Assembly: GCA_963843575.1 (NCBI GenBank)
Contig: CAWJKZ010000011.1
Location: forward strand, 106,341 to 170,340
Reading direction: 5' to 3'
From: an uncultured Acidobacteriota bacterium
GTDB taxonomy: Bacteria > Acidobacteriota > UBA6911
DNA length: 64,000 nucleotides
In this document: positions 10,978 to 62,425 of the stretch, piece after piece
Layout: each line of letters starts with the position of its first letter
How positions within the stretch are numbered: position 1 is the first letter of the stretch
Translations under genes and position numbers: made by a program
Notes under the pieces: model-generated
Told to the model about the DNA's origin: nothing
Database searches by the model: none
What the model saw: the letters and a program-made list of their open reading frames with translations, nothing else

Positions 10978-11094
10978 TAGGTTCCGTCCATTTCCGTTGA
11001 TTACGTGTGAAAGATTCACCTAGCCTGAGTCCGGTTTCGATCCGTGTCAAGACCTGGTCGATAATCGTGGGTGGGCGAGTAGGTATCCAGGACG

Positions 11095-11164
11095 CTGATG
11101 CACGCGGATGCACGCAGATTGTGACTGATCTGCGTGCATCCGCGTCCATCCGCGTCCTCAACAA
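11095..11164. repeat. ATCCGCG REP-like hairpin
   Basis: GCACGCGGATGCACGCAGAT-(9 nt)-ATCTGCGTGCATCCGCGTCC inverted repeat followed by CATCCGCGTCCTCAACAATG. Confidence 0.7.
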
Positions 11165-11261
11165 TGTAGTTTTGCAGCATTCGGGATTAACGCTCGCCCC
11201 CGGGCCGGGGCTACAATCGTTGTGCCCTGTTTTCCCGTCTGCCAATTCGGAAGGAGCCTCT

Positions 11262-12692
11262 ATGTTCAAGACGATTGAGCGAAGAGAATTCCTGAGCCTG
11301 TCGATTGCGGGGTGTGCGTCGTGCCTGGCCGCGAGACGAGGATTCCCGGCCATCCAGGCTCCCGGAGCACCGCTGCTCGTAAGCCCCGGCTGCCGCAGGA
11401 CGAAAGTCCGCGTCGCGAAGATCTATCTCGGCATCCCTCAAGCACTCTGGCCACACCCCAAGATGGATTTGCAGGACGAAATCCAAAGGTACGAGTCGGA
11501 GTTCACCCGCATGAAGCAGGAGTTCTCCGATATCGACTTCGTGGTGAACGACCTTGTGACGCAAAAGGGCCAGATCGGCCGGATGGCAGACCGGCTCAAA
11601 GACGTCGACGGTATTCTCGCCATCCACCTCTCCATGGGGGTGAGGGAGATCCTGGCGGAGGTCCTGGCACTCAAGCGACCTGTGATGCTGTTCGCCGCTC
11701 CCTATTCCGGCCACGAATGGACATCTCTCGGAGCGCTGCGCAACGAGGAAGCCGGAGCGCTCCTGGAGTGCATCCTCAGCAGCAACTTCAACGACCTTGC
11801 CGTCGCCGTGCGGCCCTTCCGTGCGATTCACCACCTCCGGGAAGCGAAGGTCGTCAACGTTTCGACGCGCGCTCCCGAGGCGGGCTACTTGAAGTGGGTC
11901 TCGGAGCGGTTCGGCACCGAGATCAAGACGATCGGCCTGCAGCCGGTGATGGCCGCCTACAATTCGATCGCCGATGCGGACGCCGAAGCCGAGGCCGGGC
12001 GATGGATCAGCCGGGCGGAGAAGGTCGTGGAACCTCCCCGCGACGAGATCTTCCGCTCCAGCAAGCTGGCGCTTGCCTTTGAAAAGCTGCTCAACGACGA
12101 GAACGCCACTGTCATCACCGTGGACTGCTACGGATCGATGTATCGCCGGCTCCCGGCGTTCCCGTGCGTCGGCTTTGTCAGGCTGAACGACATCGGGCTG
12201 GGAGGCATCTGCGAGTCCGATCTGAATTGTGCGATGACCCACATACTTCTCCAGGGACTCTCCGGGCGTCCGGGTTTCATCAGCGATCCGACGATGGACG
12301 AATCCGTCCAGGGGATCATCCTGGCGCACTGCCTGGGGAGCACGAGAATGGACGGGCCGGACAAGCCCGCCGCCCCGTTCAAGCTGCGGACCATCATGGA
12401 ACGCCAGGAAGGGTGCGTGCCGCAGGTGAGGATGCGCGTCGGGCAGAAAGTCACGCAGGCCCAGCTCGTCCAGGACGACAAGCTCCTGTACTTCACCGGG
12501 GACATCATCGAAACGCCGGATGTTGAAAAAGGCTGTCGCACCAAGATCACGGTGAAGATCGATGGCGACGCCGAAAAACTGTGGCAGCACTGGTCGCACG
12601 GCCTGCACCGGGTAACCGTCTATGGGGACTTGACCAGGGACTTGAAGCGTCTCTGCCGTTTCAAGGGCATCAACATGGTCAACGAGGCCTGA
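11262..12692 (+). CDS. Hypothetical TAT-exported protein
   Basis: RBS GGAAGGAG; twin-arginine leader MFKTIERREFLSLSIAGCASCLAA; 476 aa. A possible sugar-isomerase-like C-terminal region is not confidently assigned. Confidence 0.55.
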   Translation: MFKTIERREFLSLSIAGCASCLAARRGFPAIQAPGAPLLVSPGCRRTKVRVAKIYLGIPQALWPHPKMDLQDEIQRYESEFTRMKQEFSDIDFVVNDLVTQKGQIGRMADRLKDVDGILAIHLSMGVREILAEVLALKRPVMLFAAPYSGHEWTSLGALRNEEAGALLECILSSNFNDLAVAVRPFRAIHHLREAKVVNVSTRAPEAGYLKWVSERFGTEIKTIGLQPVMAAYNSIADADAEAEAGRWISRAEKVVEPPRDEIFRSSKLALAFEKLLNDENATVITVDCYGSMYRRLPAFPCVGFVRLNDIGLGGICESDLNCAMTHILLQGLSGRPGFISDPTMDESVQGIILAHCLGSTRMDGPDKPAAPFKLRTIMERQEGCVPQVRMRVGQKVTQAQLVQDDKLLYFTGDIIETPDVEKGCRTKITVKIDGDAEKLWQHWSHGLHRVTVYGDLTRDLKRLCRFKGINMVNEA

Positions 12693-12847: not shown

Positions 12848-13030
12848 ATGAAGGCGATCCAGGCGGTGCGGTTTGTCCGCGGAGCGTTGACGGGGCACAC
12901 GGCCCGGGCAGGGCCGTTCTTCGTCAACCTGGATGTAACGGACCGCTGCAACCTCCGTTGTCGCGGTTGCCGCACCCATTCCCTGGACGCCGCTGGCGCC
13001 GCAGCTCGGGCTGGAGGTGGGGAGCGATGA
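12848..13030 (+). pseudogene. Radical SAM enzyme N-terminal remnant
   Basis: MKAIQAVRF...FFVNLDVTDRCNLRCRGC carries the CX3CX2C motif but hits a stop 20 codons later; the downstream frames are not radical-SAM-like. Confidence 0.4.
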
Positions 13031-13219
13031 AGTGTCCTTTTCGCCGCTTCTTGTCCACCGCGGGAGATTCAGCGCGGACGCACTCGAACCCGGGCAGGAG
13101 GCGACGCTCCGCCTGTTGCTGAACCGCCTGCGGAGGGACCTGCGCCGCGCGCCGCATACGATCGTTACGGGCCGTTTCTGCCGGGGTCGTACTGTTCGGA
13201 TACGGCGTTTCACCGGCGG

Positions 13220-13558
13220 ATGGCCCGCGACGGCCAGAAGGTCCTGATCGTCCCTGAATTGCTGATCTTTCACACGGTGCGGTACGGCCTGGGCGGGTTC
13301 CTGCGGCATATTGTCGGCCATCGGCGCAGCTATGCCCTCGTGAATGCGAGGGAGAAGGGTCTTACCGGGGGACGGAGGATCGCAGCGTCCGTTGCGGCCG
13401 GTCTCTCGCCGCCGCTCCTCCTGGGCGCCATTGCCTGGCGCGTGTTCAAGTCGCGGAAGCACTGGGGCCAATTCGTCATGGCGTGCCCCGTCGTTCTGCT
13501 CGGCATCCTCGCCCGTGCCTGGGGTGAGGTGCTCGGCTATGCGCAGGGGCGTGCGTGA
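13220..13558 (+). pseudogene. C-terminal fragment of a membrane glycosyltransferase-like protein
   Basis: 112-aa ORF with hydrophobic tail (LSPPLLLGAIAWRVFKSR...VVLLGILARAWG) and no plausible N-terminal domain; lies in a gene-fragment zone between 12.7 and 13.6 kb. Confidence 0.3.
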
Positions 13559-13599
13559 CGCCTGCGGACCGGCTGAGGATATATACTGTGCGGGAGAGT

Positions 13600-16245
13600 A
13601 TGCACGACCATGACGACCCCCGAATCGGAGGCGAACCGGGGACGCTCCTCGATCTCCTCGCCTTTGATGCTGCGGAGGGCACACGTGCGGCGATCCTGGG
13701 GCCCGGCCGAAAGGACCTGGCACGCGACCGCCTGCTGCCGCAGGTCGGGGCCGTCGTCGAACGCCTGTATGCCCTGGGCGTCGGCCGAGGCGACCGGGTT
13801 GCAGTCGTGCTCCCCAACGGGCCGGACATGGCCGTGGCGTTCCTGGGCGTGGCCGCCGGCGCCGTCTGCGCCCCGCTGAATCCCGCCTACCGCGAACCTG
13901 AGTTCGACTTCTACCTGTCCGACCTCAATGCACGGGCCGTGATCCTGCCGGCCGGAACGGGATCTGCCGCCCGCGCCGCGGCACGAACCCGTTCGATCCC
14001 CGTGCTCGAGCTCTGCCTGGGCTCCGAGGCCGGCGTCTTCTCCCTCGACGGGGGCCCGACAGCACGGAAGGTGTCGACCGGCCCCGCCGCCCCAGGCGAC
14101 GTAGCGCTCGTCCTGCACACGTCCGGCACGACGTCGCGTCCGAAGATCGTCCCCCTCACCCACGCCAATCTCTGCGCCTCCGCCCGCAACATAGCGGTCT
14201 CCCTCGAACTGACCGCGACGGACCGCTGCCTGAACATCATGCCGTTGTTCCACGTGCACGGGCTGGTGGCCGCGTTGCTCGGGGCGCTGGGGGCAGGCGG
14301 CAGCGTCGTCTGCACGCCGGGCTTTGACGGCGAACGCTTCTCCGCGTGGCTGGACGAGTTCCAGCCCACCTGGTACACGGCCGTCCCGACCATGCACCAG
14401 GCCATCCTGGCCCGCGCGGGGGCGTTGGCCGACGCGCCGCCGCGATCATCCCTGCGGTTCATCCGTTCCTGCTCGTCGGCCCTGCCGCCGCAGGTCATGG
14501 CAAGGCTCGAGGACCTGTTTGGCGTGCCTGTGGTCGAGGCCTACGGCATGACGGAAGCCGCGCACCAGATTGCCTGCAACCCGCTGCCGCCCCGGCCGCG
14601 CAAGGCCCGTTCCGTCGGCGTCGCGGCCGGACCCGACGTGGCGATCATGGACGCAGGCGGGAACCTGCTCGGACCGGAATCCACCGGCGAAATCGTTATC
14701 CGCGGCCCCAACGTGACCCCGGGCTACGAGAACAACCCGACGGCGAACGAGCGCGCCTTCACCTCCGGCTGGTTCCGCACCGGCGACGAAGGGACGATCG
14801 ACGCCGGCGGCTACGTCTTCATCACCGACCGCATCAAGGAGATAATCAACCGCGGGGGCGAGAAGATATCGCCGCGCGAGGTCGACGAGGCGCTCATGGA
14901 TCACCCCGCCGTGCAGCAGGCGGTCGCCTTCGCCGTGCCGCACCCGCAGCTCGGCGAGGACGTCGTCGCCGCCGTGGTGCTCCGGCCAGGGGTGTCAGCT
15001 ACGGCCGCCGAGCTGCGGGAGTTCACGGCCGACCGCCTGGCAGCCCACAAGGTCCCGCGGCAGGTTTTAATGGTCGGCGAGATCCCGAAGGGACCGACCG
15101 GAAAGCTCCAGCGGATCAAACTGAACGACCTGCTCGGCGACCGCCTCAAGCCCGCCTACGTGGCGCCCCGGGACGCCGTCGAGGCACGACTGGAGGCGCT
15201 CTGGGGCGAAATACTTGGCGTCGAGCGCGTCGGCGTGCAGGACAACTTCTTCCTGCTGGGCGGCAGCTCACTCCCCGCAGCGCAGATGCTCGCTGGCGCC
15301 GCGGAAGAGTTCCACGTCGCCTTGCCTCTGGACCACTTCTTCCGGCATTCGACCCTGGGGGACCTGGCCGATGCCATTCGTTACGGACAAGGCGCCGGCC
15401 ATGAGCCCGGCGGCGGCCTGGACGCGCTGCTCGGGCAACCGGTCGTTGTGCCCGTGCAGCCGAACGGGTCACGCCCACCGCTGTTCCTCGCCGTGACCGG
15501 ACTCGGGTGGGAAGCCCGGCACGTGGCCAAGTACCTTGGCCCGGACCAGCCGGTCTTCGGCCTGCGCCCGACCGCCCTACTCGCCGACGCGCGCGGCGCG
15601 GCCGGCGCCCGGAACATTGCGGCGCACTATGTCGAGGCCATCCGCGGCGTTCGCCCGCACGGCCCCTACTTTCTCGCCGGAGGGTGTGCCGCCGGCATCG
15701 TCGCGTTCGAAATGGGGCGGCAGCTCATGGAGTTGGGCGAGGACGTCCCGCTGGTCGTGCTCGTGGACGTCGATTACCCGCTCCCGGCCTGGGTGCCGAC
15801 CGCCCTGGCCGTCAAACTCATGCGCCTGCCGCGCGAGTGGGCCAGGGTGCGGCGGCTGCGGCTGCGTCAGCAGTGGGAAAGCGTGACCCAGCATCTGAAG
15901 CGGTTCGCCGCCTGGATCGCCGACACCATACGGCCGGCGCCTTCGACTCCCGACCTGCAGAAGGAACTCTGGCGCCTGCGCGACTCCGTGTGGCGCTACA
16001 CCCCGGCGGCCTACCCCGGACGCCTCGCCCTCCTGCTCCCGGAACAGACCGGTGTGTGGTTCCACCACGACCGCCGCCGGTACTGGCGGCGCATCGCGGG
16101 CGGCGGGAGCGAGATCCAGCCGATCCCGGGCGAGCACAGCGCTGCCCTGCAGGAACCCCACGCTGCCGCCGCCGCCCGGGTCATCCGGGCCTGCATGGAC
16201 AGGGCCCTCGCGGGTTCTTCGAGATCCACCGAGCCGTCGCGGTGA
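13600..16245 (+). CDS. NRPS-like adenylation-thiolation-thioesterase (A-T-TE) protein
   Basis: AMP-binding motifs LHTSGTTSRPK and GYGMTEAA..., TGD, KIxxRGG; carrier-protein motif FFLLGGSSL; C-terminal alpha/beta-hydrolase/TE region LAGGCAAGIVAFEM with Cys at the nucleophile position. ATG 13600 has RBS GGGAGAG; an upstream GTG 13555 is also possible. Confidence 0.8.
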   Translation: MHDHDDPRIGGEPGTLLDLLAFDAAEGTRAAILGPGRKDLARDRLLPQVGAVVERLYALGVGRGDRVAVVLPNGPDMAVAFLGVAAGAVCAPLNPAYREPEFDFYLSDLNARAVILPAGTGSAARAAARTRSIPVLELCLGSEAGVFSLDGGPTARKVSTGPAAPGDVALVLHTSGTTSRPKIVPLTHANLCASARNIAVSLELTATDRCLNIMPLFHVHGLVAALLGALGAGGSVVCTPGFDGERFSAWLDEFQPTWYTAVPTMHQAILARAGALADAPPRSSLRFIRSCSSALPPQVMARLEDLFGVPVVEAYGMTEAAHQIACNPLPPRPRKARSVGVAAGPDVAIMDAGGNLLGPESTGEIVIRGPNVTPGYENNPTANERAFTSGWFRTGDEGTIDAGGYVFITDRIKEIINRGGEKISPREVDEALMDHPAVQQAVAFAVPHPQLGEDVVAAVVLRPGVSATAAELREFTADRLAAHKVPRQVLMVGEIPKGPTGKLQRIKLNDLLGDRLKPAYVAPRDAVEARLEALWGEILGVERVGVQDNFFLLGGSSLPAAQMLAGAAEEFHVALPLDHFFRHSTLGDLADAIRYGQGAGHEPGGGLDALLGQPVVVPVQPNGSRPPLFLAVTGLGWEARHVAKYLGPDQPVFGLRPTALLADARGAAGARNIAAHYVEAIRGVRPHGPYFLAGGCAAGIVAFEMGRQLMELGEDVPLVVLVDVDYPLPAWVPTALAVKLMRLPREWARVRRLRLRQQWESVTQHLKRFAAWIADTIRPAPSTPDLQKELWRLRDSVWRYTPAAYPGRLALLLPEQTGVWFHHDRRRYWRRIAGGGSEIQPIPGEHSAALQEPHAAAAARVIRACMDRALAGSSRSTEPSR

Positions 16246-17181: not shown

Positions 17182-18495
17182 TCATCCTCGCAGCAAGCGA
17201 TCCAGTGAAAGGATGCTCAGCATCAGCTGGCGCGGGGGATGGTAGTTGTCCTGCCGCGCCACGTGGGGCTGCTGCACCATCTTGCGGCCTGAAAAGAGCA
17301 TGTAACCGGCCTGCCCGAGCTTCCTGCGCGAGAATTTCTCGTCGATTACCCCCTGCGCCATGCCGAAGAAGCGCGCCGCCCACTCGCTGCGCGTGCGCTC
17401 GAAGACCTTCACGCAGGCTACCAGGATTTCGTTGAGCGACCACAACGTCTTCATGTACTGGTACTCGCCGCGGAACCGGAACTCGAGGTCCGTGCCCACC
17501 GGCCGCTCAACAGGCCAGGCGTAGTCCCCCTGGTCGACGTTGACCCATTGCGACAGGCCTCCGTATACCCAGTCCCAACCCACTTCGATGTGGCGGCGGA
17601 TGCGGTCCGCGCCGAGCTCCCACAGCTTGAGGTCGTTGGTGCGTGAGGCTTCGTCCATCACCATCCAGAGCGTTTCGATGGAATGGCCCGGAATACACTT
17701 CGTCTCCTCTCCAGGCGGCCTGCTGAAGTCGTGGTTCAGGTTTTCGTTGTTCAGCCCGATGTCGGGATTGTAGTGCCTGTTGATGACCGCGTCGACGGAC
17801 TGTTGCGCTACCCGCTCGATCTCGGGGTCGCGCCACCGTTTGAGGAACTGGGTGGCGATGTTGAGGTTGACCATCCAGATCCCCTGCGGACGGCAACCCG
17901 GCCCCGGCGTGCCGGGCAGGACCACCGTGGGATCCTCGATGTGCCGGTGGAGCTTCCTGATCAGCTCCACCGCCGTGCGGCGGGATTCTTCGTGCTTTGC
18001 GGCCCAGGCGTACTCGAGCAGCCCTTCGGCCACGAAATACATGCCGTAGACGTCGCCTTCGAATCCCCGGCGCACCTGCCCGTCGCGCGCCAGCATCTCC
18101 GCCCACCAGCCGTCGGCCTGCGGGGCGTGGCGCAGCACGAACCCCCGCGTCCGGGCCGCGATCTCCAGGTGGCGTGGGTTTCTGCCGAAGTTGTTGTACA
18201 GGAAGCTGTAGACCCAGATCGCCCGTCCCTGGAACCAGAGCAGCTTGTCGGAGTGCACGACCGTGCCGTCGTAGTCGAGGCCGTGCATGACGCCCCCGAA
18301 CTCGTGGTCGACGCCGTGCCCGTCCCAAAACGGCAGCACCACCCCGAAGAGCTCGTCATGGTAGCGCTTGCGCAGTTGCGCGAGCGGCAGGCCCGCCAAT
18401 CTGGCGCCTGCCTCGGCCGCGCCTGCAGCTCCGCCCCAGCTGAGCGGTCCCAGCAACCCTGCCCCCGCAGACCCGATGAATGTGCGGCGTTTCAT
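17182..18495 (-). CDS. N-acyl-D-glucosamine 2-epimerase (AGE) family protein, TAT-exported
   Basis: MKRRTFIGSAGAGLLGPL twin-arginine leader; (alpha/alpha)6-barrel AGE-like sequence along the length. Confidence 0.8.
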   Translation of the reverse strand: MKRRTFIGSAGAGLLGPLSWGGAAGAAEAGARLAGLPLAQLRKRYHDELFGVVLPFWDGHGVDHEFGGVMHGLDYDGTVVHSDKLLWFQGRAIWVYSFLYNNFGRNPRHLEIAARTRGFVLRHAPQADGWWAEMLARDGQVRRGFEGDVYGMYFVAEGLLEYAWAAKHEESRRTAVELIRKLHRHIEDPTVVLPGTPGPGCRPQGIWMVNLNIATQFLKRWRDPEIERVAQQSVDAVINRHYNPDIGLNNENLNHDFSRPPGEETKCIPGHSIETLWMVMDEASRTNDLKLWELGADRIRRHIEVGWDWVYGGLSQWVNVDQGDYAWPVERPVGTDLEFRFRGEYQYMKTLWSLNEILVACVKVFERTRSEWAARFFGMAQGVIDEKFSRRKLGQAGYMLFSGRKMVQQPHVARQDNYHPPRQLMLSILSLDRLLRG

Positions 18496-18539
18496 TTCGG
18501 CGCCCCTCCAAAAGCGGCCGACTCTGCTCAATCAAGTGG

Positions 18540-42438: not shown

Positions 42439-42460
42439 ATGCCGGCTGCCTCAAGGACCC

Positions 42461-42500
42461 GGATAACACGGATGAACGCGGACAGATGACAGATCCGCGT
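42461..42500. repeat. ATCCGCG REP-like hairpin
   Basis: TGAACGCGGA-CAGATGACAGA-TCCGCGTTCA. Confidence 0.6.
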
Positions 42501-42650
42501 TCAAATCCGCCCGGTGGCCTGCTTGCGTCATTTCCATGGCTCCGGCCTGTTGCAGCCGAAAAAGAAGGCCGGGGCCGGAATTTTGTGATAATCCGCGTTT
42601 TTGAGCCGGAAAAGTGCCGGATGGCGCTCTCGATTGGCTGGACCCATGGC

Positions 42651-43917
42651 TCAGGTCCTGACTGCACTGCATGCGGTGTCTGATCGTTGGGGCCCTATGC
42701 AACGGGTGGGATCGATTTTCAGCCAAAGCACTGCGCCCAGGCCGAGGACTGACGCCACGACAATCAGCGGCAGATTGAAACCACCGGAGAGTGCTGCCAG
42801 GTAACCAAATGAGATCGAGAGAAGGAATGAACCTAGCTGCGCGGCCGTATTCATGGAGCCCGAGACTGTTCCCGCGTGCTTTCCGCCGACGTCCAGGCAG
42901 ACCGCCCAGACGGCCGGTTGCTGGAAGGCAATGCCCGCGTAGCTCAATCCCAGCAGCGCCAGGGCCAACAGGTTGTTGGGTGTGAATGCAGCCGCCAACA
43001 TGAAAAGAGCTGCGGCGGACAGACTCGCCATACCCGTCGCACGCCGGCCCCACTTCAATCCCAGCCTCTTCACCGTCAGGTCGCTCGCATATCCTCCGAC
43101 AACCGTTGGCCAGGGCACCGAGCACGAAGGGCACTGTGGAAAGCAGGAGTTCGCTCTCCCCGAAGCCCCGGCCTTTGGCCAGATAAGTCGGAAGCCAGGA
43201 GATGAAGAAGTACATGCCATAGCAGTAGGTTAGTGCCAGTGTCATGAGCGCCCAGAGATTTCCATCCCGGAACAAGCCCCCCCATGGCAGCCGATCTCCA
43301 TGCGGCATCGGGGCGATGCCGATCTCGTCCAGTTCCTGCCTCGTGATGGCAGGCTTGTCTCCGGGATTGTCCCGATACCAGAGATACCATACCGCGCACC
43401 ATCCCATGCCAATCAAGCCGAAGAGGAAAAATGAGGTTCGCCAGCCGTAACGCATCTGGATCGGGACGACCAGCAGGGGGGAAAGGGCGGCTCCCGCTTG
43501 GCTCGCCATCCAGACAATACCAAAGGCGCCGCCGCGCTCTGCCTGGGGAAACCAGCGTGAGATGCTCGTAGCGGTGGTGGGATAGGCTCCTGCCTCGCCC
43601 ATGCCGAAACAGAAGCGGGTCAGGAGAAGGGAGTAGTAGTTCGAAACCGTCCCTGTGAGGCAGGTGAAGGCCGACCACCAGCAAACAATTCGCGTCAGCA
43701 CTCGCCGGGCGCCGATCCGATCTCCCAGCGAACCACTCGGAATCTCAAATGCCCCATAGGCGATTGCGAATACGCCGACCACCCAACCCCAGGCCTGCAG
43801 ACTGATGTTCAATTCCTCCTGCATTCGAGGACCTGCGACTGAGATGCAGACCCGATCGAGGTAGGTGATCGCGGAAAGCATCGAAAGGAGCACAAGGACG
43901 CGATGCCGCAATTTCAT
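42651..43917 (-). CDS. MFS transporter (ACS/anion-cation symporter-like), frameshifted
   Basis: MFS TM pattern, D-R-x-G-R-R-like DRIGARRVL. N-terminal 265 aa in the 43917 frame; the C-terminal half (VVGGYASDLTVKRLGLKWGRR...) continues in another frame (ORF 42651-43220). The break is near 43080-43130. Confidence 0.7.
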
Positions 43918-44005
43918 GTGGCGATGATAGATTCAACGGGTTGCGCAAGTGAAGAGGATTCACCCCTCGCTGTACGGTATACAATATTGCGTGCTGGAGT
44001 GTGGC

Positions 44006-45880
44006 ATGACAAATCCCCTTCCTATCCGGCCCGGCGGCAGTTTCATTGCCTTTGACAAGATTGAGATCAATGGTTCGATCCCCGAGCGCTTCGAACGACA
44101 GGTGCAGGTTTATTCCGGGAGACTCGCGATCCAGTTCGGGAATCATGCGCTGACATACGCGGACTTGAATGAGGCCGCTAACCGGATAGCACAAGCCCTC
44201 CTGTACCTATCCTCGCGGGAGCGGGAGACCATCGCGTTGCTGATTGAGCAGGGGGGTCTACTCATAGCCGCGATCCTGGGAATCCTCAAGGCGGGCAGGA
44301 TCTACGTCCCACTGGATCCGCAGCACCCCCGATCACGACTCGAATATATGCTCTCCGATGCCGAGCCAACCTGGATTTTGACGCACGACACCCATCTGGC
44401 ATTGGCCGACGGATTGGCCCCGGAGGGTTGTAGAGTGCTCAATGTCGAGCGGCTCGACGCATCGGGAATTGCCCGAAATCCTTCCCCTCAAGCCGGCCCG
44501 GATTCTCTCGCCTGCCTCTATTACACATCGGGATCCACCGGCCGGCCCAAAGGCGTCGTTGACAGCCACCGGAATGTCCTTCACAACATCATGCGATACA
44601 CGAACGGGTTGTCTTTTTCCCCGGAGGACAGGTTTTCGCTCATTCAATCCTGCGGTTTCAGTGGTTGTGTCTCGACCATGTTCGGCGCACTGCTCAATGG
44701 GGCCTCGGTCTTTCCTTACGACCTGCAGAAAGCCGGATCCGCCGGGCTCAGCGATTGGGCGCGGCAAAGCGGAATAACGATCTATCACTCGGTCCCGGCC
44801 CTGTTCCGTGAGCTGGCGTGCGGCACGAGCCAGTTTCCCAGTGTTCGACTTATCCGCCTTGAAGGTGACCAGGCCTCGCGCAAGGACGTTGAGCTGTATC
44901 GCAGGCATTTCAGTCCGGAGTGTCTGCTTGTCAATGGGCTGGGTACCACCGAGACCGGAATTGTCCGCCGCTTTGTTATCGACCACCGGACGACGGTGCC
45001 GGAGGGGCCTCTGCCGGTGGGATATGCCGTTGATGACATGATTGTCCTCGTTTTGGATGAAGAGGGCCGCCCGCTGGTGGACTGTGAAATAGGGGAAATT
45101 GCCGTCCAGAGCGAATATCTTGCCTCGGGCTATTGGCGCCGACCGGATCTGACTGCGGCATGTTTCCGGCGAGATCCAGAAAATTCACGCGCGCGCATCT
45201 ATCGGACGGGTGACCTGGGTCGCATGCGTTCGGATGGCTGCCTCGAGCACCTCGGTCGCAAGGACTTCCACGGAAAAATAAGGGGACAATGGGTTGAAAT
45301 CGAGGCAGTCGAATCCGCGCTGCTCGACATGGGCGCCTTTAAGGACATAGCGGTTGTCACACGTCAGGACCCGGCCGAAGAAACGCGCCTCGTGGCTTAC
45401 CTCGTGCCTGCCACCGATTTGCCCCCGACGGTGAGCGCCCTGCGGCGGGTTCTCGAACAGAAGCTACCCAGGCAGTCGATTCCCTCTTCCTACGTCTTGC
45501 TCGATGCCCTGCCGTTGAACGAACACCGGAAGCTGGACCGGAGCGCCCTTCCTCCGCCCGAGAGGACTCGGCCGTGCCTGAGCCAGCCATATGAAGCGCC
45601 TCACACTCCCCTGGAGCAGGTCGTTGCGGACATTTGGGTTGAGGTACTGCAACTGGACCGGGTGGGCATTCATGACAGTTTCTTTGACTTGGGCGGGGAT
45701 TCACTGACGGCGGGACGAGTGCTGTCGCGGGTGCGCCTTTCGTTTTCTGTCGAATTGAGCCTGCGCCAGTTTTTCGATGCCCCGACCGTCCATCAAATGG
45801 CACTCGAGATTCAGGAAGTTCTTGTTGCGCCCGCCATCGTGCCACGGGCGCAAGGACCCCAAGATACCCCACCAAGTTGA
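44006..45880 (+). CDS. Non-ribosomal peptide synthetase-type adenylation-thiolation (A-T) didomain protein
   Basis: A-domain cores LTYADLNEAANRIA, YTSGSTGRPKGV, GLGTTETG, YRTGDLGR, GRKDFHGKIRG; PCP core FFDLGGDSLTAGR. Confidence 0.8.
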   Translation: MTNPLPIRPGGSFIAFDKIEINGSIPERFERQVQVYSGRLAIQFGNHALTYADLNEAANRIAQALLYLSSRERETIALLIEQGGLLIAAILGILKAGRIYVPLDPQHPRSRLEYMLSDAEPTWILTHDTHLALADGLAPEGCRVLNVERLDASGIARNPSPQAGPDSLACLYYTSGSTGRPKGVVDSHRNVLHNIMRYTNGLSFSPEDRFSLIQSCGFSGCVSTMFGALLNGASVFPYDLQKAGSAGLSDWARQSGITIYHSVPALFRELACGTSQFPSVRLIRLEGDQASRKDVELYRRHFSPECLLVNGLGTTETGIVRRFVIDHRTTVPEGPLPVGYAVDDMIVLVLDEEGRPLVDCEIGEIAVQSEYLASGYWRRPDLTAACFRRDPENSRARIYRTGDLGRMRSDGCLEHLGRKDFHGKIRGQWVEIEAVESALLDMGAFKDIAVVTRQDPAEETRLVAYLVPATDLPPTVSALRRVLEQKLPRQSIPSSYVLLDALPLNEHRKLDRSALPPPERTRPCLSQPYEAPHTPLEQVVADIWVEVLQLDRVGIHDSFFDLGGDSLTAGRVLSRVRLSFSVELSLRQFFDAPTVHQMALEIQEVLVAPAIVPRAQGPQDTPPS

Positions 45881-46073
45881 ACCGCGGCGGCGGCACAAGG
45901 GCCGCCAGCCAGGCCACGAGCGTCCACAGCCGGTTGAGGAAGTATGGGAAGTCTGCCGCCAGACCCCCGAAGGACCGGGGAGCTGCTCATGAGAGAGGCA
46001 ACATCCACCGTGACCTGAAACCTGCCAACCTGTGCCTGTTCTGAGTTCTCTCCCGAGCTGTTGCCGGCTGCTT

Positions 46074-47336
46074 TCAAATCGTGCGCGCCAGACGTCGAAT
46101 GACTTCGAGACAGGCCCGCGAAGCGTGGTAGGGGCCTCGCCAGGGACCGGCCTTTGTGCCGTCGATTTTTCCCTCGGGATCTATTGCCGCGTACCATTCA
46201 CCGCACTCACGGTCCACGAAGTCATCGAGAATGAACTGTGCCTCGTGCTCGAACGCCTGCCAATATTTCAGCCGCCCCGTCAACTGGTAGGCGTTTAGAG
46301 TTCCGACAAGAGCCTCGGCCTGTTGCCACCATTCTTTGCGCTTCCTGTCGGCGGGGCCTGACGCCGGCCCTTCCAGGAAGAGTCCGCCGCGCTGGTTGTC
46401 AAAGCCGTCGCGCAGCGCGTGATCCACCAACGCCAGGCAGGTTCGCTCGACCCTGGAATCCCGGCCACGCCCGACAAGCGCCGCGGCTTCAGGGACGAGC
46501 CAGCTCATCTCCATGTCGAGACCGTACACACACCGGATCGAATCGCCGTCTCGGTCGGCGGGCTGCCAATCGTCCGTGAAGTACAACCGGGCGTAGCCCT
46601 GCTCCAAGTCCACAACCCTTTCCACGAAGATATCCACCAATTCCTCAACGCGGGCGCGAACGTCGGCTTCCCCGGTCACATCGTAAAGCGTGGCCAACGC
46701 CTCAAGGAGGCCGAGGTGCCAATCCGATGACTTTCGGCCGTGGGAGGCAACCAGGACCGGGTGAACCTCCTCGTCCGGCGCGACACATGACGAGGCGGTG
46801 GTTCCTGAATCGCGTTGGTAGTCCCGAATCGGCTGCCAGTCCTCGGTGAAGGCGACGTGGTAGCCCCCGTACACGCCATCGTGGGCGCGGCGGTCCATGA
46901 CCTCAAACAGGTCCAGCGCTTCCTGGCGGGCCTGCGCGTCGTGGAACGCAAGCGCATACTCGGCCAGTCCCTCGAGCACATAGGACATCGGATTCAGAAG
47001 CTTCGTGCCGTCGAGCAGCCGACCTTGGCGGTCAACCAACCAGCAGTAGCCGCCCCGCTTCGCGTCCCACATCTTGGCGCGCAGGAACTTCAGGAGGTGC
47101 GTGGCCGCTTCCGCGTAAATGGGCTCGGGGTAGCGCCGGTAGACTTCGGCGAACGTCCACAATAGTCGCCCCTGCTGCGCCACGGATTTGGTACCGGGAG
47201 GAACCGGGTTGCCTTGTCGGTCGAGCCAGCCCATGGCGCCGCCGTATTGACGGTCGATGCCGTGGTCAATCCAGAATTGCAGGACGCCGTGCAAGAGATT
47301 GTCGCGAAATTCCACCATCCAGTCGCGCTTCGGCAT
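46074..47336 (-). CDS. N-acyl-D-glucosamine 2-epimerase (AGE) family protein (cellobiose-2-epimerase-like), cytoplasmic
   Basis: MPKRDWMVEFRDNLLHGVLQFW... AGE-type (alpha/alpha)6 barrel; no signal peptide. Confidence 0.8.
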   Translation of the reverse strand: MPKRDWMVEFRDNLLHGVLQFWIDHGIDRQYGGAMGWLDRQGNPVPPGTKSVAQQGRLLWTFAEVYRRYPEPIYAEAATHLLKFLRAKMWDAKRGGYCWLVDRQGRLLDGTKLLNPMSYVLEGLAEYALAFHDAQARQEALDLFEVMDRRAHDGVYGGYHVAFTEDWQPIRDYQRDSGTTASSCVAPDEEVHPVLVASHGRKSSDWHLGLLEALATLYDVTGEADVRARVEELVDIFVERVVDLEQGYARLYFTDDWQPADRDGDSIRCVYGLDMEMSWLVPEAAALVGRGRDSRVERTCLALVDHALRDGFDNQRGGLFLEGPASGPADRKRKEWWQQAEALVGTLNAYQLTGRLKYWQAFEHEAQFILDDFVDRECGEWYAAIDPEGKIDGTKAGPWRGPYHASRACLEVIRRLARTI

Positions 47337-47387
47337 ATGCCCTCGTGACTTGTGCCGGCAATTGTACCACTCGCGTGAATCCGTCAA

Positions 47388-47666
47388 GCAGAACGCGGAT
47401 CTTCGCGGATTTTACGGATTCACGCGGATCGGCCGCGCCCGGCATTCCTCCCCGAGGGCCGGCGCTTCGCGCCGAGGCATCAAAGCCCGGCTCCCGCAGG
47501 AAAGCGCGCGGTTGGAAGGATGCCGCTTCGATTCAAGGTCCACGTTTTCCTGCGGGAGCCGGGCTTTGATGCGTGCCAAAGGCAGCCCTCGGGGAGGAAT
47601 GCCGGGCGCGGCCTGCCACCAGGCAGCAATCCGCGTGTATCCGCGTAGATCTGCGTCCTGGAAACG
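47388..47666. repeat. MITE-like palindromic element with REP-type ends
   Basis: Internal inverted repeat: left arm 47431-47503 and right arm 47545-47613 share two perfect blocks (29 bp GGCCGCGCCCGGCATTCCTCCCCGAGGGC; 27 bp CATCAAAGCCCGGCTCCCGCAGGAAA) in inverted orientation. The arms are flanked by CGCGGATC-rich ends, CAGAACGCGGATCTTCGCGGATTTTACGGATTCACGCGGATC and ATCCGCGTGTATCCGCGTAGATCTGCGTCCTGGAAACG. Confidence 0.75.
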
Positions 47667-47717
47667 TTAGCGTGTTTCTGAACACGAGTACTTAGTGATG
47701 GTGCCGTGTCAGCGGTT

Positions 47718-47752
47718 GACAGTAAACCAGCCGGGCCTTAGGATACAGCCCA
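47718..47752 (+). promoter_or_regulatory. Candidate sigma70-type promoter (TTGACA-17-TAGGAT) ahead of a ~430-nt leader
   Basis: GCGGTTGACAGTAAACCAGCCGGGCCTTAGGATACAG, ~430 nt upstream of the sulfotransferase start; no convincing ORF in between. Confidence 0.3.
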
Positions 47753-48177
47753 GTACCACGTGTGCCGCAATTTCGCATGCGCCGGGTCCTGGAGGATGCC
47801 CCTTCAGGAGGAATCCACGGTTGGTCGGGCCGCCATCCGAAGGATCATAGAGTGCCATAAGGGGTCGGTTGCACGACATCGAATACCGGCGCCGGGCAGA
47901 TGCTCGAAAATGGTTTCTTTGGCTGGCTCGCCAGGCAGGTTCGCGGCGCGGTGCGATGTAACGAGATTTCCGTTTCGCTTCTCTCCACCCCAACCTCATA
48001 TCCCCTGAACGCTGCAGAGCGATCTCTCGCAGCTACTGGAGCTGCATGACGTATGCGGGACTGCGAGCTGAGAGACGATGACACCATCGTCTTTGGGCAA
48101 GTGCCCGAAGGTATCTGCGCACCTCGTCCCCGCCAAGTAAGGGCGGCAGGCGAAGTTACTCCGGGTTCATTAAGAAC

Positions 48178-49419
48178 ATGAGCGAACGAGAAGCGTCCTG
48201 TGAAACGGCCCAGGGAAAAATCGTGAAGCCCTTGTCCCCGACTCCGCGGCCTATCTTTATCATTGGTTCACCCCGGTCGGGAACCAGCATTCTCACATGG
48301 TGCCTGGGGCAGCACCCTGACATCCTACCTTTGGAGGAGGGCAACTGGCTGGACAAGTTTGCATTGGAGTTGGGATCGACCTACGAGTGTGGCACCAGGC
48401 GAGGGGAGCGGGCCCAACTCGCAGCGCTGGGAATCAGCCGCGATGAGTTTTACGAATCGTTCGGTTCCGCCATCAATGCTCTCATCCTGAGTTGCCGTGA
48501 CCGATTGTATGAACGTGCGCATGCAAGCGCCGTGCTCGACCCGACCCAGATACACCCTTCATTCAAGCTGACGCGAGAGACAGGCGAACCGAAACTCCGA
48601 TGGACGGATGGGACGCCCGAATATTCCCTTTGCGTCTACGGGCTGCTCAAGCTTTTTCCAGAAGCCCGGTTCATTCACGTCGTTCGAGACGTCAAATCCG
48701 TGGTCAGATCGTTGGTGAGGTTTTCGTCGCAGGGGCAATCCATAGTCCGTAACGAGCGTGAAGCTTACGAATACTGGCTCAGGACGACCCGTGCGTGTGT
48801 AACCGCCGAGCAAGCACTTGGCCCAGGCCGGATTCGTCGGGTTCGCCACGTTGACCTGATGAAAGATCCGGTGCGTACGTTTACAGGTCTCCTCGACTTT
48901 CTGGGCGAGCCATTCTGCCCGCGGTGTCTCGAACCGCTGGAAGTTCGCATCAACAGCTCGAAGGTTCCGCCGGAGTTCGATAGCCGTGACGGAACATCTC
49001 CGACAACTGTCCTGGAGGAGGCCGAGATTCTCAGCGACCGGCTCCAGCGAATGGAACAACCGTCTCTTCCAGATTTGCGTAAGATGGCGGAGGTGGAAGA
49101 CGCGTTCTGGGATCGGGTGCGGTACGTCGGAAGTCTGGATGCCGAACTCGACAGGAGTATCGCGAACTACGTTGCCCTTGAGGAAGCCCTAGCCGACCGG
49201 ACCGAGTGGGCACAGAAACTGGTCAGGGAAATAGCTGACCGTGACGAAACGATCCGCCGGTACCAGCATGAATTAGGGAAACGCACCATCAGATACGGCC
49301 TGTGGCGGTTTGGCCAGCTTCTGTCACGAAGACTTCGGCTCAGGCCCGATCCCGAGGGGGGTTCTCCGAACCATCCCTCCCGCCAATATTCGGAGAGTAG
49401 AGACACCCGGCCGCACTGA
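48178..49419 (+). CDS. Sulfotransferase family protein with C-terminal coiled-coil extension
   Basis: PAPS-binding P-loop IFIIGSPRSGTSIL (5'-PSB) and an RxxxxxS-type 3'-PB region (ARFIHVVRDVKSVVRS). C-terminal ~150 aa are predicted helical. Confidence 0.75.
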   Translation: MSEREASCETAQGKIVKPLSPTPRPIFIIGSPRSGTSILTWCLGQHPDILPLEEGNWLDKFALELGSTYECGTRRGERAQLAALGISRDEFYESFGSAINALILSCRDRLYERAHASAVLDPTQIHPSFKLTRETGEPKLRWTDGTPEYSLCVYGLLKLFPEARFIHVVRDVKSVVRSLVRFSSQGQSIVRNEREAYEYWLRTTRACVTAEQALGPGRIRRVRHVDLMKDPVRTFTGLLDFLGEPFCPRCLEPLEVRINSSKVPPEFDSRDGTSPTTVLEEAEILSDRLQRMEQPSLPDLRKMAEVEDAFWDRVRYVGSLDAELDRSIANYVALEEALADRTEWAQKLVREIADRDETIRRYQHELGKRTIRYGLWRFGQLLSRRLRLRPDPEGGSPNHPSRQYSESRDTRPH

Positions 49420-49685
49420 TGCTCTGAATGCCCGGGGACGAATCTGCACAATTACAGCTGCAAACTACGTCCGGGCCGAAGAGGCTGTCCAACGGTTGAT
49501 TGTGGAGTGCGGCGGCTCGACGGCTCGACGCCGCTTTGGTGGTGGCGCCTCGGCGCCACCAAAGGCCGAGGTCGCAGGGTCGCCTCTCGCAATTCGGCGT
49601 GGCGCCGAGGCGCCGGGCATTCCTGCCGTAGGACGAGTGAAAGCGACGCCGAGGCGCCGCACTCCAGATTCGTACGAGGTGATCC

Positions 49686-51437
49686 GTGCAGAAGACCCTT
49701 GTTACACCACACGGCGGAACGCTCGTCGACCTCTTCGTCTCGAATGAGCGAGCTGCGGATACCGCGAGGGAATCGAAGTGTCTGCCCTCCTGGGTCCTGA
49801 CGCCGCGGCAGCGGTGCGACCTCGAGTTGCTCATGAGCGGAGGGTTCTCGCCGCTGAAAGGATTCCTCAACCGGGAGGATTACCATTCGGTGCTCGAGAC
49901 GATGCGCCTGGCGGATGGAACGCTCTGGCCGGTCCCTGTAGTGCTCGATATGCCAGAAGAGCACGCCTCGAGGCTCAGCAAGGGGGATCGGCTCGCCCTG
50001 CGCGACGACGAAGGCGTGATGCTCGGTATCCTCCACGTCGAGGAAGTGTGGCGCGCGGATCGCCAATTGGAGGCGGAGAAAGTCTACGGCACGATAGATC
50101 CAGCCCACCCAGGTGTGCGGCACCTGCTGGAGAGTACGCACCCCGTATACGCGGGCGGCCGCGTCGAGGGGATCCACCCTCCTGCGCACTACGATTTCCG
50201 GACGCTCCGGCGCACGCCCGCCGAGATGCGCAGCGAATTCCAGCGGCTCGGCTGGCGGCGCGTCGTGGCCTTCCAGACGCGGAATCCTCTCCACCGGGCG
50301 CATTTCGAGCTGACATTGAGAGCCGCCAGGGAGTGCAACGCAAACCTCCTTATCCACCCGGTAGTGGGAATGACGAAACCGGGCGACCTCGATCACTACA
50401 CGCGGGTCCGCTGCTACGAGGCGCTGATGCACCGTTATCCCCCGGGGACGGTGATGCTTTCGCTCCTGCCGCTCGCCATGCGGATGGCAGGCCCCCGGGA
50501 GGCAGTCTGGCACGCGATCATCCGCAAGAACTACGGCTGTACCCACTTCATCGTGGGACGCGACCACGCAGGACCCGGCGTCGACGGGGGCGGCAACAGG
50601 TTCTATGGCCACTACGATGCCCAGGAGCTGCTTCGAGCGCACGAAGCGGAGCTCGAGGTGCAGATGGTGCCGTTCCGCTCGATGGTCTACCTTGAAACCG
50701 AGGACCGGTACGTCTCCGAGGACGAAGTGCCCGAGGGCGCGCATGCCTCCAACATGTCGGGGACGGACCTCAAGCGCCGCCTCGCCGAGGGGCGCGACAT
50801 CCCGGCATGGTTCACGTTCCCGGAGGTGGCGGCGGAACTCCAGAAGAGCCATCCTCCCCGCAGCCGCAGTGGGTTTACCGTGTTCTTCACCGGGCTGTCA
50901 GGCGCGGGCAAATCGACAATAGCTAACGTGCTCCTCGTGAAGTTGCTGGAAATGGGCGGCCGCCCGGTGACGCTCCTGGACGGCGACATCGTCAGGAAGA
51001 ATCTCTCCTCCGAGCTCGGGTTCTCAAAGGAGCACCGCGACATCAACATCCGCCGGGTCGGATTCGTCGCGTCCGAGATCACGAAGAACGGCGGCATAGC
51101 AATCTGTGCCCCAATTGCCCCCTACGACAGGACGCGGCGCGACGTGAGGGCCGCCATCGAGCCGCTCGGCTGCTTCGTCCTCGTTTACGTGTCGACCCCG
51201 ATCGAGGTATGTGAGCAGCGCGATCGCAAGGGGCTCTATGCGAAGGCGCACGCGGGCCTCATCCCCGAGTTCACGGGGGTCTCGGATCCGTATGAGGCGC
51301 CGGCTGATGCGGACGTCGTCATCGACACGACCGACCTCACTCCCGAACAGGCTGCCGAGGAAGTGCTGCTGCACCTCAGGAATATAGGGTGTATAGGCAC
51401 AATCACCCCGGCGGATCCGCGCGCATCCGCGTCCTGA
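49686..51437 (+). CDS. Bifunctional sulfate adenylyltransferase / adenylylsulfate kinase (PAPS synthase)
   Basis: ATP-sulfurylase motifs QTRNPLHRAH and GRDHAGPG in the N-terminal two-thirds; APS-kinase P-loop FTGLSGAGKSTIA and LDGDIVRKNL in the C-terminal third. GTG start. Confidence 0.85.
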   Translation: MQKTLVTPHGGTLVDLFVSNERAADTARESKCLPSWVLTPRQRCDLELLMSGGFSPLKGFLNREDYHSVLETMRLADGTLWPVPVVLDMPEEHASRLSKGDRLALRDDEGVMLGILHVEEVWRADRQLEAEKVYGTIDPAHPGVRHLLESTHPVYAGGRVEGIHPPAHYDFRTLRRTPAEMRSEFQRLGWRRVVAFQTRNPLHRAHFELTLRAARECNANLLIHPVVGMTKPGDLDHYTRVRCYEALMHRYPPGTVMLSLLPLAMRMAGPREAVWHAIIRKNYGCTHFIVGRDHAGPGVDGGGNRFYGHYDAQELLRAHEAELEVQMVPFRSMVYLETEDRYVSEDEVPEGAHASNMSGTDLKRRLAEGRDIPAWFTFPEVAAELQKSHPPRSRSGFTVFFTGLSGAGKSTIANVLLVKLLEMGGRPVTLLDGDIVRKNLSSELGFSKEHRDINIRRVGFVASEITKNGGIAICAPIAPYDRTRRDVRAAIEPLGCFVLVYVSTPIEVCEQRDRKGLYAKAHAGLIPEFTGVSDPYEAPADADVVIDTTDLTPEQAAEEVLLHLRNIGCIGTITPADPRASAS

Positions 51438-56843: not shown

Positions 56844-57105
56844 CGCAGGGCGAAGCCCGACCCCAGGGCGGCGTGGCGAGGTGCCGGGAGAGGCCCCCAC
56901 CGGCCGCCCTTTCTTGGTCTAGCAGCAGTGGTGGTGATGCCCGTCGGGGTGGGCACATCCTCAGGCAGGGGCCACGTAGCGCTCGGGCTCCTTGTCGAAT
57001 TCCTTCTTGCAGCTCGGGGAGCAGAACACATAGGTTTGCCCGGCGTGCGTACTCCTGTGCGGGGAGTTGTCGTCACGGTCATGCCGCAAACAAGGTCCTT
57101 GGCCC

Positions 57106-57776
57106 GCGTGCGGCTCTTTCGGCTGAGTTGTTGGAAATTCGCCCGTTTTTCTTTTGTGCCAGAACAGAATTGACCGAACGGTGTGTCCCCGGCGCGAAAG
57201 CGGTCGGCCTGGCGCTGCTGTATTCGGACCTCCGTATCGGCCCGAGTCAGGCTACGGCACAAATTCCGATTCTCGCTCCGGCGGGAATGCCAGCTACCGG
57301 CCCTTGTTCTCATGCGTGTGCACGGCCCTTTCGGGGTGGTCGGCGGCATCCTCGAGACCGTCCACGACCCCGGCCTCGTATGCCTGGTCCGTCTCGGCGA
57401 GTTCTCCAACGCTCTCCTCGTCAGCGTCCGCAATTTGCGAAAGCCCCTGGGCATCACCCGATTGCCCCGCGCTGTCAGAACTTGCTTCCTCCGGGTCCCT
57501 CCCAAGCTCATCGATCTGAGCCTCGTCATTCCGCAGTTTACGTGTCACCATGGACACCTCCCCAGAGCGCCAGAATCGAGTGCCGAATAGTGGCTGCTCA
57601 TTGGATGAATTTCGCCAACACTTGCATGGGGCTTCTTGGTCGCGGCGATGCTCTTCAATTTCGCGCGGTCCGTCACCATCGCCCGACGGAACCGGGTATC
57701 ACGCTGTACGTCGACGAGATCGGCCCTTCAGTGCTCTGGCACTTCGCGCCAGGCTCTTCGCGTCCCTGCTTGCGGA
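57106..57776. repeat. 671-bp direct repeat, copy 1
   Basis: Near-identical to 62426-63096 (a handful of substitutions and two 1-nt indels by eye); both copies yield identical ORF-track peptides. Confidence 0.9.
57294..57557 (-). CDS. Small acidic protein encoded inside the direct repeat (87 aa)
   Basis: GTG start; MSMVTRKLRNDEAQIDELGRDPEEASSDSAGQSGDAQGLSQIADADEESVGELAETDQAYEAGVVDGLEDAADHPERAVHTHENKGR. This is the only frame in the repeat with non-biased composition. Confidence 0.4.
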   Translation of the reverse strand: MSMVTRKLRNDEAQIDELGRDPEEASSDSAGQSGDAQGLSQIADADEESVGELAETDQAYEAGVVDGLEDAADHPERAVHTHENKGR

Positions 57777-62207: not shown

Positions 62208-62425
62208 AACTCCCTCATAGGGTCGTCAGACAATGGGTAAAAGACGTTAGGCAGCTGCGGATTGGCCGGGTTGAGGTCGACACATTTCACCTATGCAACG
62301 ACGTACAGTTGCGTACCGAGCGCCGAAATCAGCGCATCAGATTCGCGGTCGAACTTGAGGACCTCTCCAGAACTGAGCGCACCGTGCTCCGCCAGATCAC
62401 GGTCAGCAAAGGGAAATCTGATGGC

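Follow-up and report, generated by a model that had tools for sequence, protein, structure and literature searches.

What would a bacterium do with an enzyme that looks able to activate a small acid, load it onto its own carrier domain and pass it to a thioesterase in which a cysteine replaces the usual nucleophilic serine? This question is raised by a gene at 13555..16245, on the + strand of a stretch of 64,000 nucleotides (hereafter, the window) from contig CAWJKZ010000011.1 of an uncultured Acidobacteriota bacterium. Its product combines an adenylation (A), a carrier (T) and a thioesterase (TE) domain, and is called A-T-TE below. An earlier note on this DNA, made from the letters alone, had drawn attention to the cysteine and had connected it with the release chemistry of obafluorin- and sulfazecin-type pathways. 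Judging from sequence comparisons, A-T-TE is an intact three-domain enzyme made of an oxalate-type activator, a carrier and a Cys thioesterase, and it belongs to a widespread family.

The open reading frame (ORF) starts at GTG 13555, stops at TGA 16243-16245 and is unbroken over its 896 codons (896 aa), in a window that is without any N. Its third-position GC content, 0.86, is typical of coding sequence within the window. Other starts are possible: GTG 13588 gives an 885-aa product, which is the one found in the public record (P0001, 100% identical to A-T-TE from that codon), and ATG 13600 is the start that was used in the earlier note. The A-T-TE architecture proposed there is borne out by Pfam, which reports, in this order, AMP-binding (residues 63-391, E 1.9e-73), AMP-binding_C (442-517), PP-binding (545-608, E 3.9e-13) and Thioesterase (PF00975, 680-744, 39.1 bits versus a cutoff of 26.4). 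Transposed to nucleotides of the + strand, the adenylation domain, of the ANL superfamily, occupies 13741..15105 (residues 63-517), the carrier domain 15187..15378 (residues 545-608), and the type I thioesterase domain, an alpha/beta hydrolase with a helical lid, 15442..16224 (approximately residues 630-890). The phosphopantetheine site of the carrier, Ser572 in LGGSS (codon 15268-15270), is kept in 121 out of 121 aligned sequences, query and homologues together.

The stretch LAGGCAAG, which corresponds to residues 707-714 (nt 15673-15696), had been read as a nucleophile elbow with Cys at the place of Ser, to be checked by alignment to known TE domains, by structure modeling and by inspection of orthologues. 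All three lines agree with this reading. In phmmer alignments against PDB sequences, with E-values between 2e-15 and 1e-12 for the solved TEs named here, Cys711 (TGT 15685-15687, + strand) faces the nucleophile Ser of 7crn (GWSLGS, Ala in mutant 7dxo) and of NocB (GWSFGG), as well as the Cys of AB3403 from Acinetobacter baumannii (GWCFGG). Asp738 (GAC 15766..15768, +), 27 residues after Cys711, aligns with the matching Asp of NocB and AB3403, and His861 (CAC 16135..16137, +), in a PGEH motif, aligns with the PGAH of NocB. The comparison with a canonical elbow holds for the Cys, at the Ser position, and less well for the motif around it, which reads G-G-C-A-A, with Ala rather than Gly at position +2.

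Residues 610-896 were modeled with AlphaFold2 from an alignment of 62 sequences, which gave a mean predicted local distance difference test (pLDDT) score of 90.0 and a predicted template modeling score (pTM) of 0.88. Cys711 (102 in model numbering) is found between strand 97-101 and helix 103-117, that is, at the nucleophile elbow; Asp738 (129) comes right behind strand 124-128 and His861 (252) behind strand 243-248, and the helical lid (140-203) is inserted between strands 124-128 and 215-220. When the model was compared to the PDB with Foldseek, the top 50 matches were all TEs of nonribosomal peptide synthetases (NRPSs), polyketide synthases (PKSs) or fatty acid synthases (FASs), led by 7dxo/7crn, AB3403, FAS TE, Pks13 TE and NocB TE. 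Alignment and model together place the predicted triad Cys-Asp-His (711/738/861) at the canonical positions of a type I TE, the Asp being at position I (after beta6) and the His after beta8. In kind, the TE is closest to the terminal TE of AB3403 (ABBFA_003403, PDB 4ZXH), an A. baumannii NRPS that ranks third by Foldseek and fourth by sequence with the TE as query. This TE is also of type I, with a Cys nucleophile and a position-I Asp after beta6; it differs in that it terminates a module made of condensation (C), A, T and TE domains, with an amino-acid A domain. The two TEs are ~21% identical, and the product chemistry of AB3403 is likewise uncharacterised.

How common is such a cysteine? We searched 5.8 billion proteins; the counts given below bear on the 120 homologues listed, or on the 121 aligned sequences. 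Nearly all of the 120 are 840-930 aa long with the same four Pfam domains, and the matches listed come from cyanobacteria, Chloroflexota, Bacteroidota, Poribacteria, a gammaproteobacterial symbiont and many metagenomes; family members are also present in Acidobacteriota and Desulfobacterales. In an alignment of 17 sequences, the query and its 16 closest orthologues (53-62% identity), Cys711, Asp738 and His861 are invariant. Across the 120 listed homologues, the nucleophile column contains Cys in 69, Ser in 38 and Gly in 10. When the TE domain alone was searched, without a profile, against 1.84 billion cluster representatives (50% identity), 13,680 matches were obtained at E<=1e-10, and among the best 149 of these, which belong to many architectures of up to 4,500 aa, Cys is found in 89 and Ser in 58. 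Most of this TE clade therefore has Cys, which is rare only among characterised enzymes. The rarity attributed to Cys TEs when the gene was singled out is accurate for the latter and does not extend to the family, and the view that they are rare and a mark of exotic ring chemistry was built on few characterised enzymes.

On a rough neighbour-joining tree, sequences with the same type of triad group into coherent clades, C-D-H (to which the query belongs), S-D-H, C-E-H, G-D-H and C-Y/F/N/Q-R/K, and the distribution requires the nucleophile to have changed at least 12 times. The entire orthologue clade of the query is C-D-H. Elsewhere among the homologues, non-canonical sites are encountered: Gly-Asp-His, without a nucleophile, in 10, Cys-Glu-His in 15, and, in about 25, Cys accompanied by Tyr, Phe, Asn or Gln for the Asp and Arg or Lys for the His. 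The oxalate-type pocket of the A domain, described below, is retained in all clades with such sites.

The question then arises as to which acid is activated. The best PDB matches of the A domain are oxalate-CoA (coenzyme A) ligases, with 410 bits (E 1e-121) for Arabidopsis AAE3, 404 bits for Lathyrus LsOCS and 370 bits for yeast Pcs60; the next ANL family in this search, which is not of the oxalate type, scores 209 bits, a gap of about 200 bits. In AtAAE3, the oxalate pocket consists of Val215, His216, Cys288, Ser289, Ala313, Met314, His319 and Lys500, among which Ser289 and His319 are reported to be specific to oxalyl-CoA synthetases (PMC8905533). A residue-by-residue alignment gives as equivalents V234, H235, C306, S307, G331, M332, H337 and K517, so that seven out of eight positions are identical, the sole change being Ala313 to Gly (G331). 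In the family, M332 and K517 are found in 121/121 sequences, S307 in 120/121 and H337 in 119/121; at the position of C306, 65 of 121 homologues have a Ser. The amino acid adenylation model TIGR01733 is absent from the 25 NCBIfam matches shown for A-T-TE. From its sequence, the A domain is thus assigned to the oxalate-CoA ligase family, and oxalate is, somewhat more probably than not, its substrate. The earlier view that the domain is of the acyl-CoA-ligase rather than the amino-acid type is confirmed by the Pfam, NCBIfam and PDB matches alike, and the "unusual starter acid" then proposed becomes more specific, as an oxalate-type acid.

The likeness to AtAAE3 (PDB 5IE0-5IE3), LsOCS (6QJZ) and Pcs60 (8AFF) extends from end to end of the A domain (residues ~44-520) and includes the oxalate-contacting Ser, His and Lys. 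These enzymes, however, are free-standing proteins of ~515-545 aa whose product, oxalyl-CoA, serves in oxalate catabolism, whereas in A-T-TE the ligase domain is fused, in one ORF, to PP-binding and TE domains. Given this fusion to its own carrier, the thiol acceptor is presumably phosphopantetheine and not CoA. Stand-alone bacterial ligases that are 58-64% identical to residues 30-528 of A-T-TE also exist. Two loci with such stand-alone genes may be mentioned in their own right, their ligases being 51-61% identical to the A domain. In Sneathiella chungangensis (L049, 11454-13969), the ligase gene is accompanied by a second ligase gene and by one for a PanE/ApbA-family reductase, maybe an oxalyl-CoA reductase; this family is that of the Methylobacterium oxalyl-CoA reductase PanE2, and the neighborhood is a lead rather than a test. 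In Methyloversatilis universalis (L054, 9857-14711), the ligase gene is followed by a TctC/TctA carboxylate transporter.

Clues to the fate of the acid were sought in the surroundings of the gene in seven orthologue loci (L001, L002, L003, L005, L086, L087 and L088). A gene of the alkaline-phosphatase superfamily (PF01663, Phosphodiest) lies directly upstream of A-T-TE in five of them, often overlapping or abutting it, and a gene for an Sfp/HetI-type phosphopantetheinyl transferase (PPTase) lies directly downstream in four. A convergent NodB-type polysaccharide deacetylase gene (PF01522), a DUF354 gene and a GT-C glycosyltransferase gene (PMT or PMT_2) are each present at 5/7 loci, and a protein of ~560 aa to which no role is assigned is encoded at 4/7; a flippase-like LPG_synthase_TM protein and a family 2 glycosyltransferase (GT2) each occur at one. 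More distant family members (Acidobacteriota, Desulfobacterales, Chloroflexota) are without these partners, although several keep an adjacent PPTase. From its gene content, the orthologue locus looks like one for envelope-glycoconjugate modification. ArnD (PF01522), ArnT (GT-C) and ArnC (GT2) make up the pathway to lipid-linked aminoarabinose, a lipid-linked aminosugar, and by analogy the combination of a PF01522 deacetylase with GT-C and GT2 glycosyltransferases resembles the Arn set.

A process in four steps can be proposed for A-T-TE. The ANL domain would adenylate oxalate, or a very similar small carboxylate, as its homology suggests. The acid would then be thioesterified onto the phosphopantetheine arm of Ser572, on the enzyme's own carrier rather than on CoA, as expected from the fusion. 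Next, the TE would take over the acyl group on Cys711, with the help of His861 and Asp738; here the residues and the fold are observed, and the chemistry is what they would predict. Finally, the acyl-S-Cys intermediate would be resolved by transfer to an external nucleophile and not by simple hydrolysis, since hydrolysis of an unmodified acyl group would merely give the substrate back and waste ATP. Transfer is also supported by the deacetylase of the orthologue loci, which would yield a free sugar amine, and a Cys thioester is well suited to aminolysis. The likeliest acceptor, going by the orthologue loci, would be a cell-envelope glycoconjugate, through one of its amines or hydroxyls, for instance on a de-N-acetylated amino sugar. 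This scheme, in which a stand-alone enzyme of the NRPS-like kind would activate a small acid, keep it on its carrier and pass it to an acceptor, has in our estimate an even chance of being right. Its fullest version is a new acyl-transfer system, with an oxalate-charged carrier and a Cys TE acting as an oxalyl-transferase onto an envelope glycan or lipid-linked amino sugar, according to an Arn-like logic in which the NodB-type deacetylase, the alkaline-phosphatase-family enzyme and the GT-C of the orthologue loci take part. This version is speculative, and we would call it rather unlikely as a whole. We know of no description of the oxalylation of a bacterial surface polymer.

Precedents exist for parts of the scheme. 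The Pks13 TE of Mycobacterium tuberculosis transfers an acyl chain to trehalose, which shows that a TE can work as an acyltransferase onto a sugar. It is a Foldseek neighbor of the TE studied here (PDB 5V3W and related entries, E ~1e-12, TM-score ~0.6), although its nucleophile is Ser, its substrate is a very long lipid and the protein to which it belongs is a large PKS. In the non-reducing NRPS-like synthetases TdiA, AtrA and RalA, which make quinones and furanones, the TE makes the product-forming bond and dimerises two units; their NRPS-type A domains activate aromatic alpha-keto acids. These enzymes (PMC9047271) share the A-T-TE order and the lack of a C domain with the protein described here, whose A domain differs from theirs in being of the oxalate-CoA-ligase and not the NRPS type.

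The copy present in the window has a different neighborhood. According to Pfam and NCBIfam scans of ~45 window ORFs, no biosynthetic gene cluster surrounds it, its neighbors being sugar-metabolism, Kelch, zinc-ribbon and transporter genes. Just upstream, at 13147..13558 (+), lies the remnant of a GT2 gene encoding the C-terminal 136 aa of a protein of ~300 aa, the N-terminal 165 aa being missing. This remnant is 82% identical in protein and 84% in nucleotide sequence to an intact gene of L089 (protein P0274), and the nucleotide homology to L089 ends no more than one base away from the stop codon of GT2, precisely where the A-T-TE ORF begins. In relatives, the GT2 gene comes after a radical-SAM/SPASM gene, and both are intact. 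Here, a 60-codon fragment with a CxxxCxxC motif is found at 12848-13027 (+) and ends at an in-frame TGA; it has no significant match to any radical-SAM protein, so that calling it a radical-SAM remnant is only tentative. The public record annotates a 112-aa ORF (P0275) in the 12848-13558 region. An ORF at 13031-13558, which overlaps the start of A-T-TE, was considered as an operon partner and rejected, being the C-terminal remnant of GT2. As judged from sequence, 12848-13558 looks like a deletion scar. The GC content is 70% over 14001-16000, compared to 64-65% in the flanking 2-kb bins, and this contrast, together with the break of synteny at the A-T-TE start codon, hints at a separate origin. 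We are dealing with an intact A-T-TE gene beside what looks like a deletion scar and away from its usual partners, for which horizontal arrival is plausible but unproven.

Several observations weigh against the scheme proposed above. None of six orthologue partner families, PPTase included, was found in the 64-kb window by tblastn (E 1e-2); the acceptor hypothesis therefore rests on other genomes, and the PPTase and acceptor pathway on which the window copy depends have to be encoded elsewhere. The assignment of oxalate as substrate is extrapolated from plant and yeast enzymes, and the best NCBIfam match is NF004511, an equivalog for FadD7-family fatty acid-CoA ligases, at 419.2 bits, under its 650-bit cutoff. 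Neither an oxalyl-CoA decarboxylase (oxc) nor a formyl-CoA transferase (frc) gene was seen among ten neighbouring ORFs at five loci of stand-alone homologues (58-64% identity). The triad geometry is deduced from the secondary-structure positions of the model only. Moreover, the existence of the G-D-H clade, devoid of nucleophile, and of the C-Y-R/K clade, devoid of His and Asp, implies that covalent triad catalysis is not universal in the family. Lastly, the literature searched contained no published account of this architecture, of an oxalyl-loaded carrier protein or of any member of the family.

Some of these observations would be accounted for if the architecture and the Cys-TE chemistry were as proposed, and the acid a different one (glyoxylate, malonate, oxamate or a short fatty acid), the AAE3-like pocket reflecting ancestry and not specificity. 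The missed FadD7 cutoff and the lack of oxalate-catabolic genes next to the sampled stand-alone homologues would fit such an explanation, as would the Ala313 to Gly change, which enlarges the pocket slightly, and the Ser found at the C306 position in about half of the family. Yet the equivalents of the two residues held to be specific to oxalyl-CoA synthetases, Ser289 and His319, are kept in 119-120 of 121 sequences, a gap of some 200 bits separates the oxalate-CoA ligases from every other ANL family, and a PanE/ApbA-family reductase gene follows the stand-alone homologue of L049. We therefore regard another acid as somewhat unlikely. Alternatively, the TE may serve only for hydrolytic release or editing: trans-acting enzymes would modify the carrier-bound acyl group, the free acid would be released, and the Cys would have no special meaning. 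The free alternation of Ser and Cys on the tree is compatible with this, and two radical-SAM enzymes are encoded near A-T-TE in the orthologue locus L002. These genes, however, are not conserved among the orthologue loci, an oxalyl group leaves little room for tailoring on the carrier, and direct hydrolysis would amount to the futile, ATP-consuming cycle mentioned above; release by hydrolysis seems to us improbable. Finally, the window copy could be a non-functional relic, stranded beside a deletion scar and split from its PPTase and partners. The missing partner families, the truncated GT2 gene and interrupted CxxxCxxC fragment just upstream, and the deviant GC content all point in this direction. 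But a relic would hardly be expected to have kept an uninterrupted frame of 896 codons, a third-position GC content usual for coding sequence of the window and every catalytic or binding residue that is invariant in orthologues, and we consider this explanation very improbable.

There remains the chemistry suggested at the outset, in which ring closure of a tethered substrate by the Cys TE would give a beta-lactone or beta-lactam, as with ObiF and SulM, perhaps with N-sulfonation by sulfation genes of the window. The SulM and ObiF TEs indeed have a Cys nucleophile in a type I TE fold, as here. Their catalytic Asp, however, follows beta7 (position II), and they act on peptides bearing a beta-nucleophile; SulM has in addition a Gln-Cys-Asn motif and a positively charged, Arg-rich pocket, and AB3403 is an example of a TE that pairs Cys with the conventional position-I Asp (PMC11298585). 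None of the distinguishing features of SulM and ObiF was found in A-T-TE. Its motif is Gly-Cys-Ala, and its acid is at position I: in an analysis of co-variation over 118 homologues, 86 of the 88 that bear the His also have an acid at position 738. A candidate for a SulM-like position-II acid, Asp839, in the loop after beta7, was rejected, as it does not co-vary with the His (22 of 24 homologues without both the His and the position-I acid still have it) and lies in a D....W stretch with a Trp retained in 115/121 sequences. Other conserved Arg and Trp residues of the TE are R757, R760, W813, R823, W835, R841 and W844. The co-variation of the His with position 738 and the persistence of Asp839 in its absence designate Asp738 as the triad acid. 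Pfam and the PDB matches of the A domain indicate neither a C domain nor an amino-acid module, an oxalyl group has no beta-nucleophile, and none of the 31 PDB sequence matches of the TE at E<=1 (phmmer) can be recognised as SulM or ObiF.

The sulfation genes do exist in the window, as the earlier note said. Domain scans identify a sulfotransferase (Sulfotransfer_3, 48082-49419, +) and a 3'-phosphoadenosine-5'-phosphosulfate (PAPS) synthase, that is, a bifunctional ATP-sulfurylase/adenosine-5'-phosphosulfate (APS) kinase (49683-51437, +). They lie 32-34 kb downstream of A-T-TE, with ~20 unrelated ORFs in between (sugar metabolism, TPR, oxidoreductase, transporter), and no sulfotransferase or PAPS synthase is listed within 8-10 kb of the gene in the seven orthologue loci, so that we see no basis for linking them to A-T-TE. 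As far as sequence can tell, three of the four features that define beta-lactam and beta-lactone formation are missing, the Cys nucleophile being the only one present, and the obafluorin- or sulfazecin-type release suggested earlier is not supported and seems scarcely credible. More generally, since Cys is the majority state in the TE clade and interchanges with Ser, with Gly and with His-less triads, it is by itself a poor predictor of such chemistry, and the position of the triad Asp discriminates better than the presence of the Cys.

The sulfation genes belong to a second carrier locus (42451-51437), which deserves a description of its own. An MFS transporter gene (42451-43917, -) is followed by an A-T didomain gene (43949-45880, +), of the NRPS amino-acid type, without C or TE domain (TIGR01733, 321 bits, just over cutoff), then by an AGE-family epimerase-like gene (46074-47411, -) and by the Sulfotransfer_3 and ATP-sulfurylase/APS kinase genes; the whole could form a small pathway leading to a sulfated product. 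The A-T didomain was considered as a paralogue or partner of A-T-TE, and rejected: it is 25% identical, lies 28 kb off, is of the NRPS amino-acid type, and no link was shown. An nhaA-I RNA (RF03057) at 47784-47838 (+), with 48.3 bits versus a threshold of 37, is the sole Rfam match of the window at gathering threshold. The sulfotransferase gene starts ~240 nt downstream of it; a gene of this kind is not usual behind the motif.

AGE-family genes (N-acetylglucosamine 2-epimerase or cellobiose 2-epimerase-like) were met three times convergent to or near genes for carrier-loading enzymes, which may be due to chance. One (17182-18531, -) is a single gene away from A-T-TE, another is the gene at 46074-47411 that directly follows the A-T didomain, and the third (L062, 5863-7149, -) directly follows a Cys-type A-T-TE homologue in an Acidobacteria metagenome-assembled genome, its product being 36% identical to that of 46074-47411. 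Upstream of the putative deletion scar, the gene at 11001-12692 (+) encodes a protein without Pfam family, which carries a twin-arginine-like signal (MFKTIERREFLSLSIAG...) and, by NCBIfam (E 2e-10), only weakly resembles sulfoquinovose isomerase and L-arabinose isomerase; on these grounds it is predicted to be an unclassified exported sugar-isomerase-like protein. The window also contains a direct repeat of 672 bp (57105-57776 and 62425-63095, 99% identity), the two copies being ~5.3 kb apart. The 139-codon ORFs in the repeat look non-protein-like, and a small acidic ORF (57294-57557, -) may instead be the real gene.

Considered on its own, the window copy adds little, as one intact and context-poor member of the family. 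The family itself is of broader interest: the combination of an oxalate-CoA-ligase-type domain with a carrier and a TE is widespread, being found in Acidobacteriota, cyanobacteria, Chloroflexota, Bacteroidota, Poribacteria and others. An oxalate-type loading domain followed by a Cys, transferase-like TE makes a reasonable target for biochemistry, even though the Cys itself is ordinary for the clade. Should oxalate be the substrate, the family would point to an unrecognised use of oxalyl thioesters in bacteria, which, if true, appears tied to envelope glycoconjugate modification in the closest orthologues.

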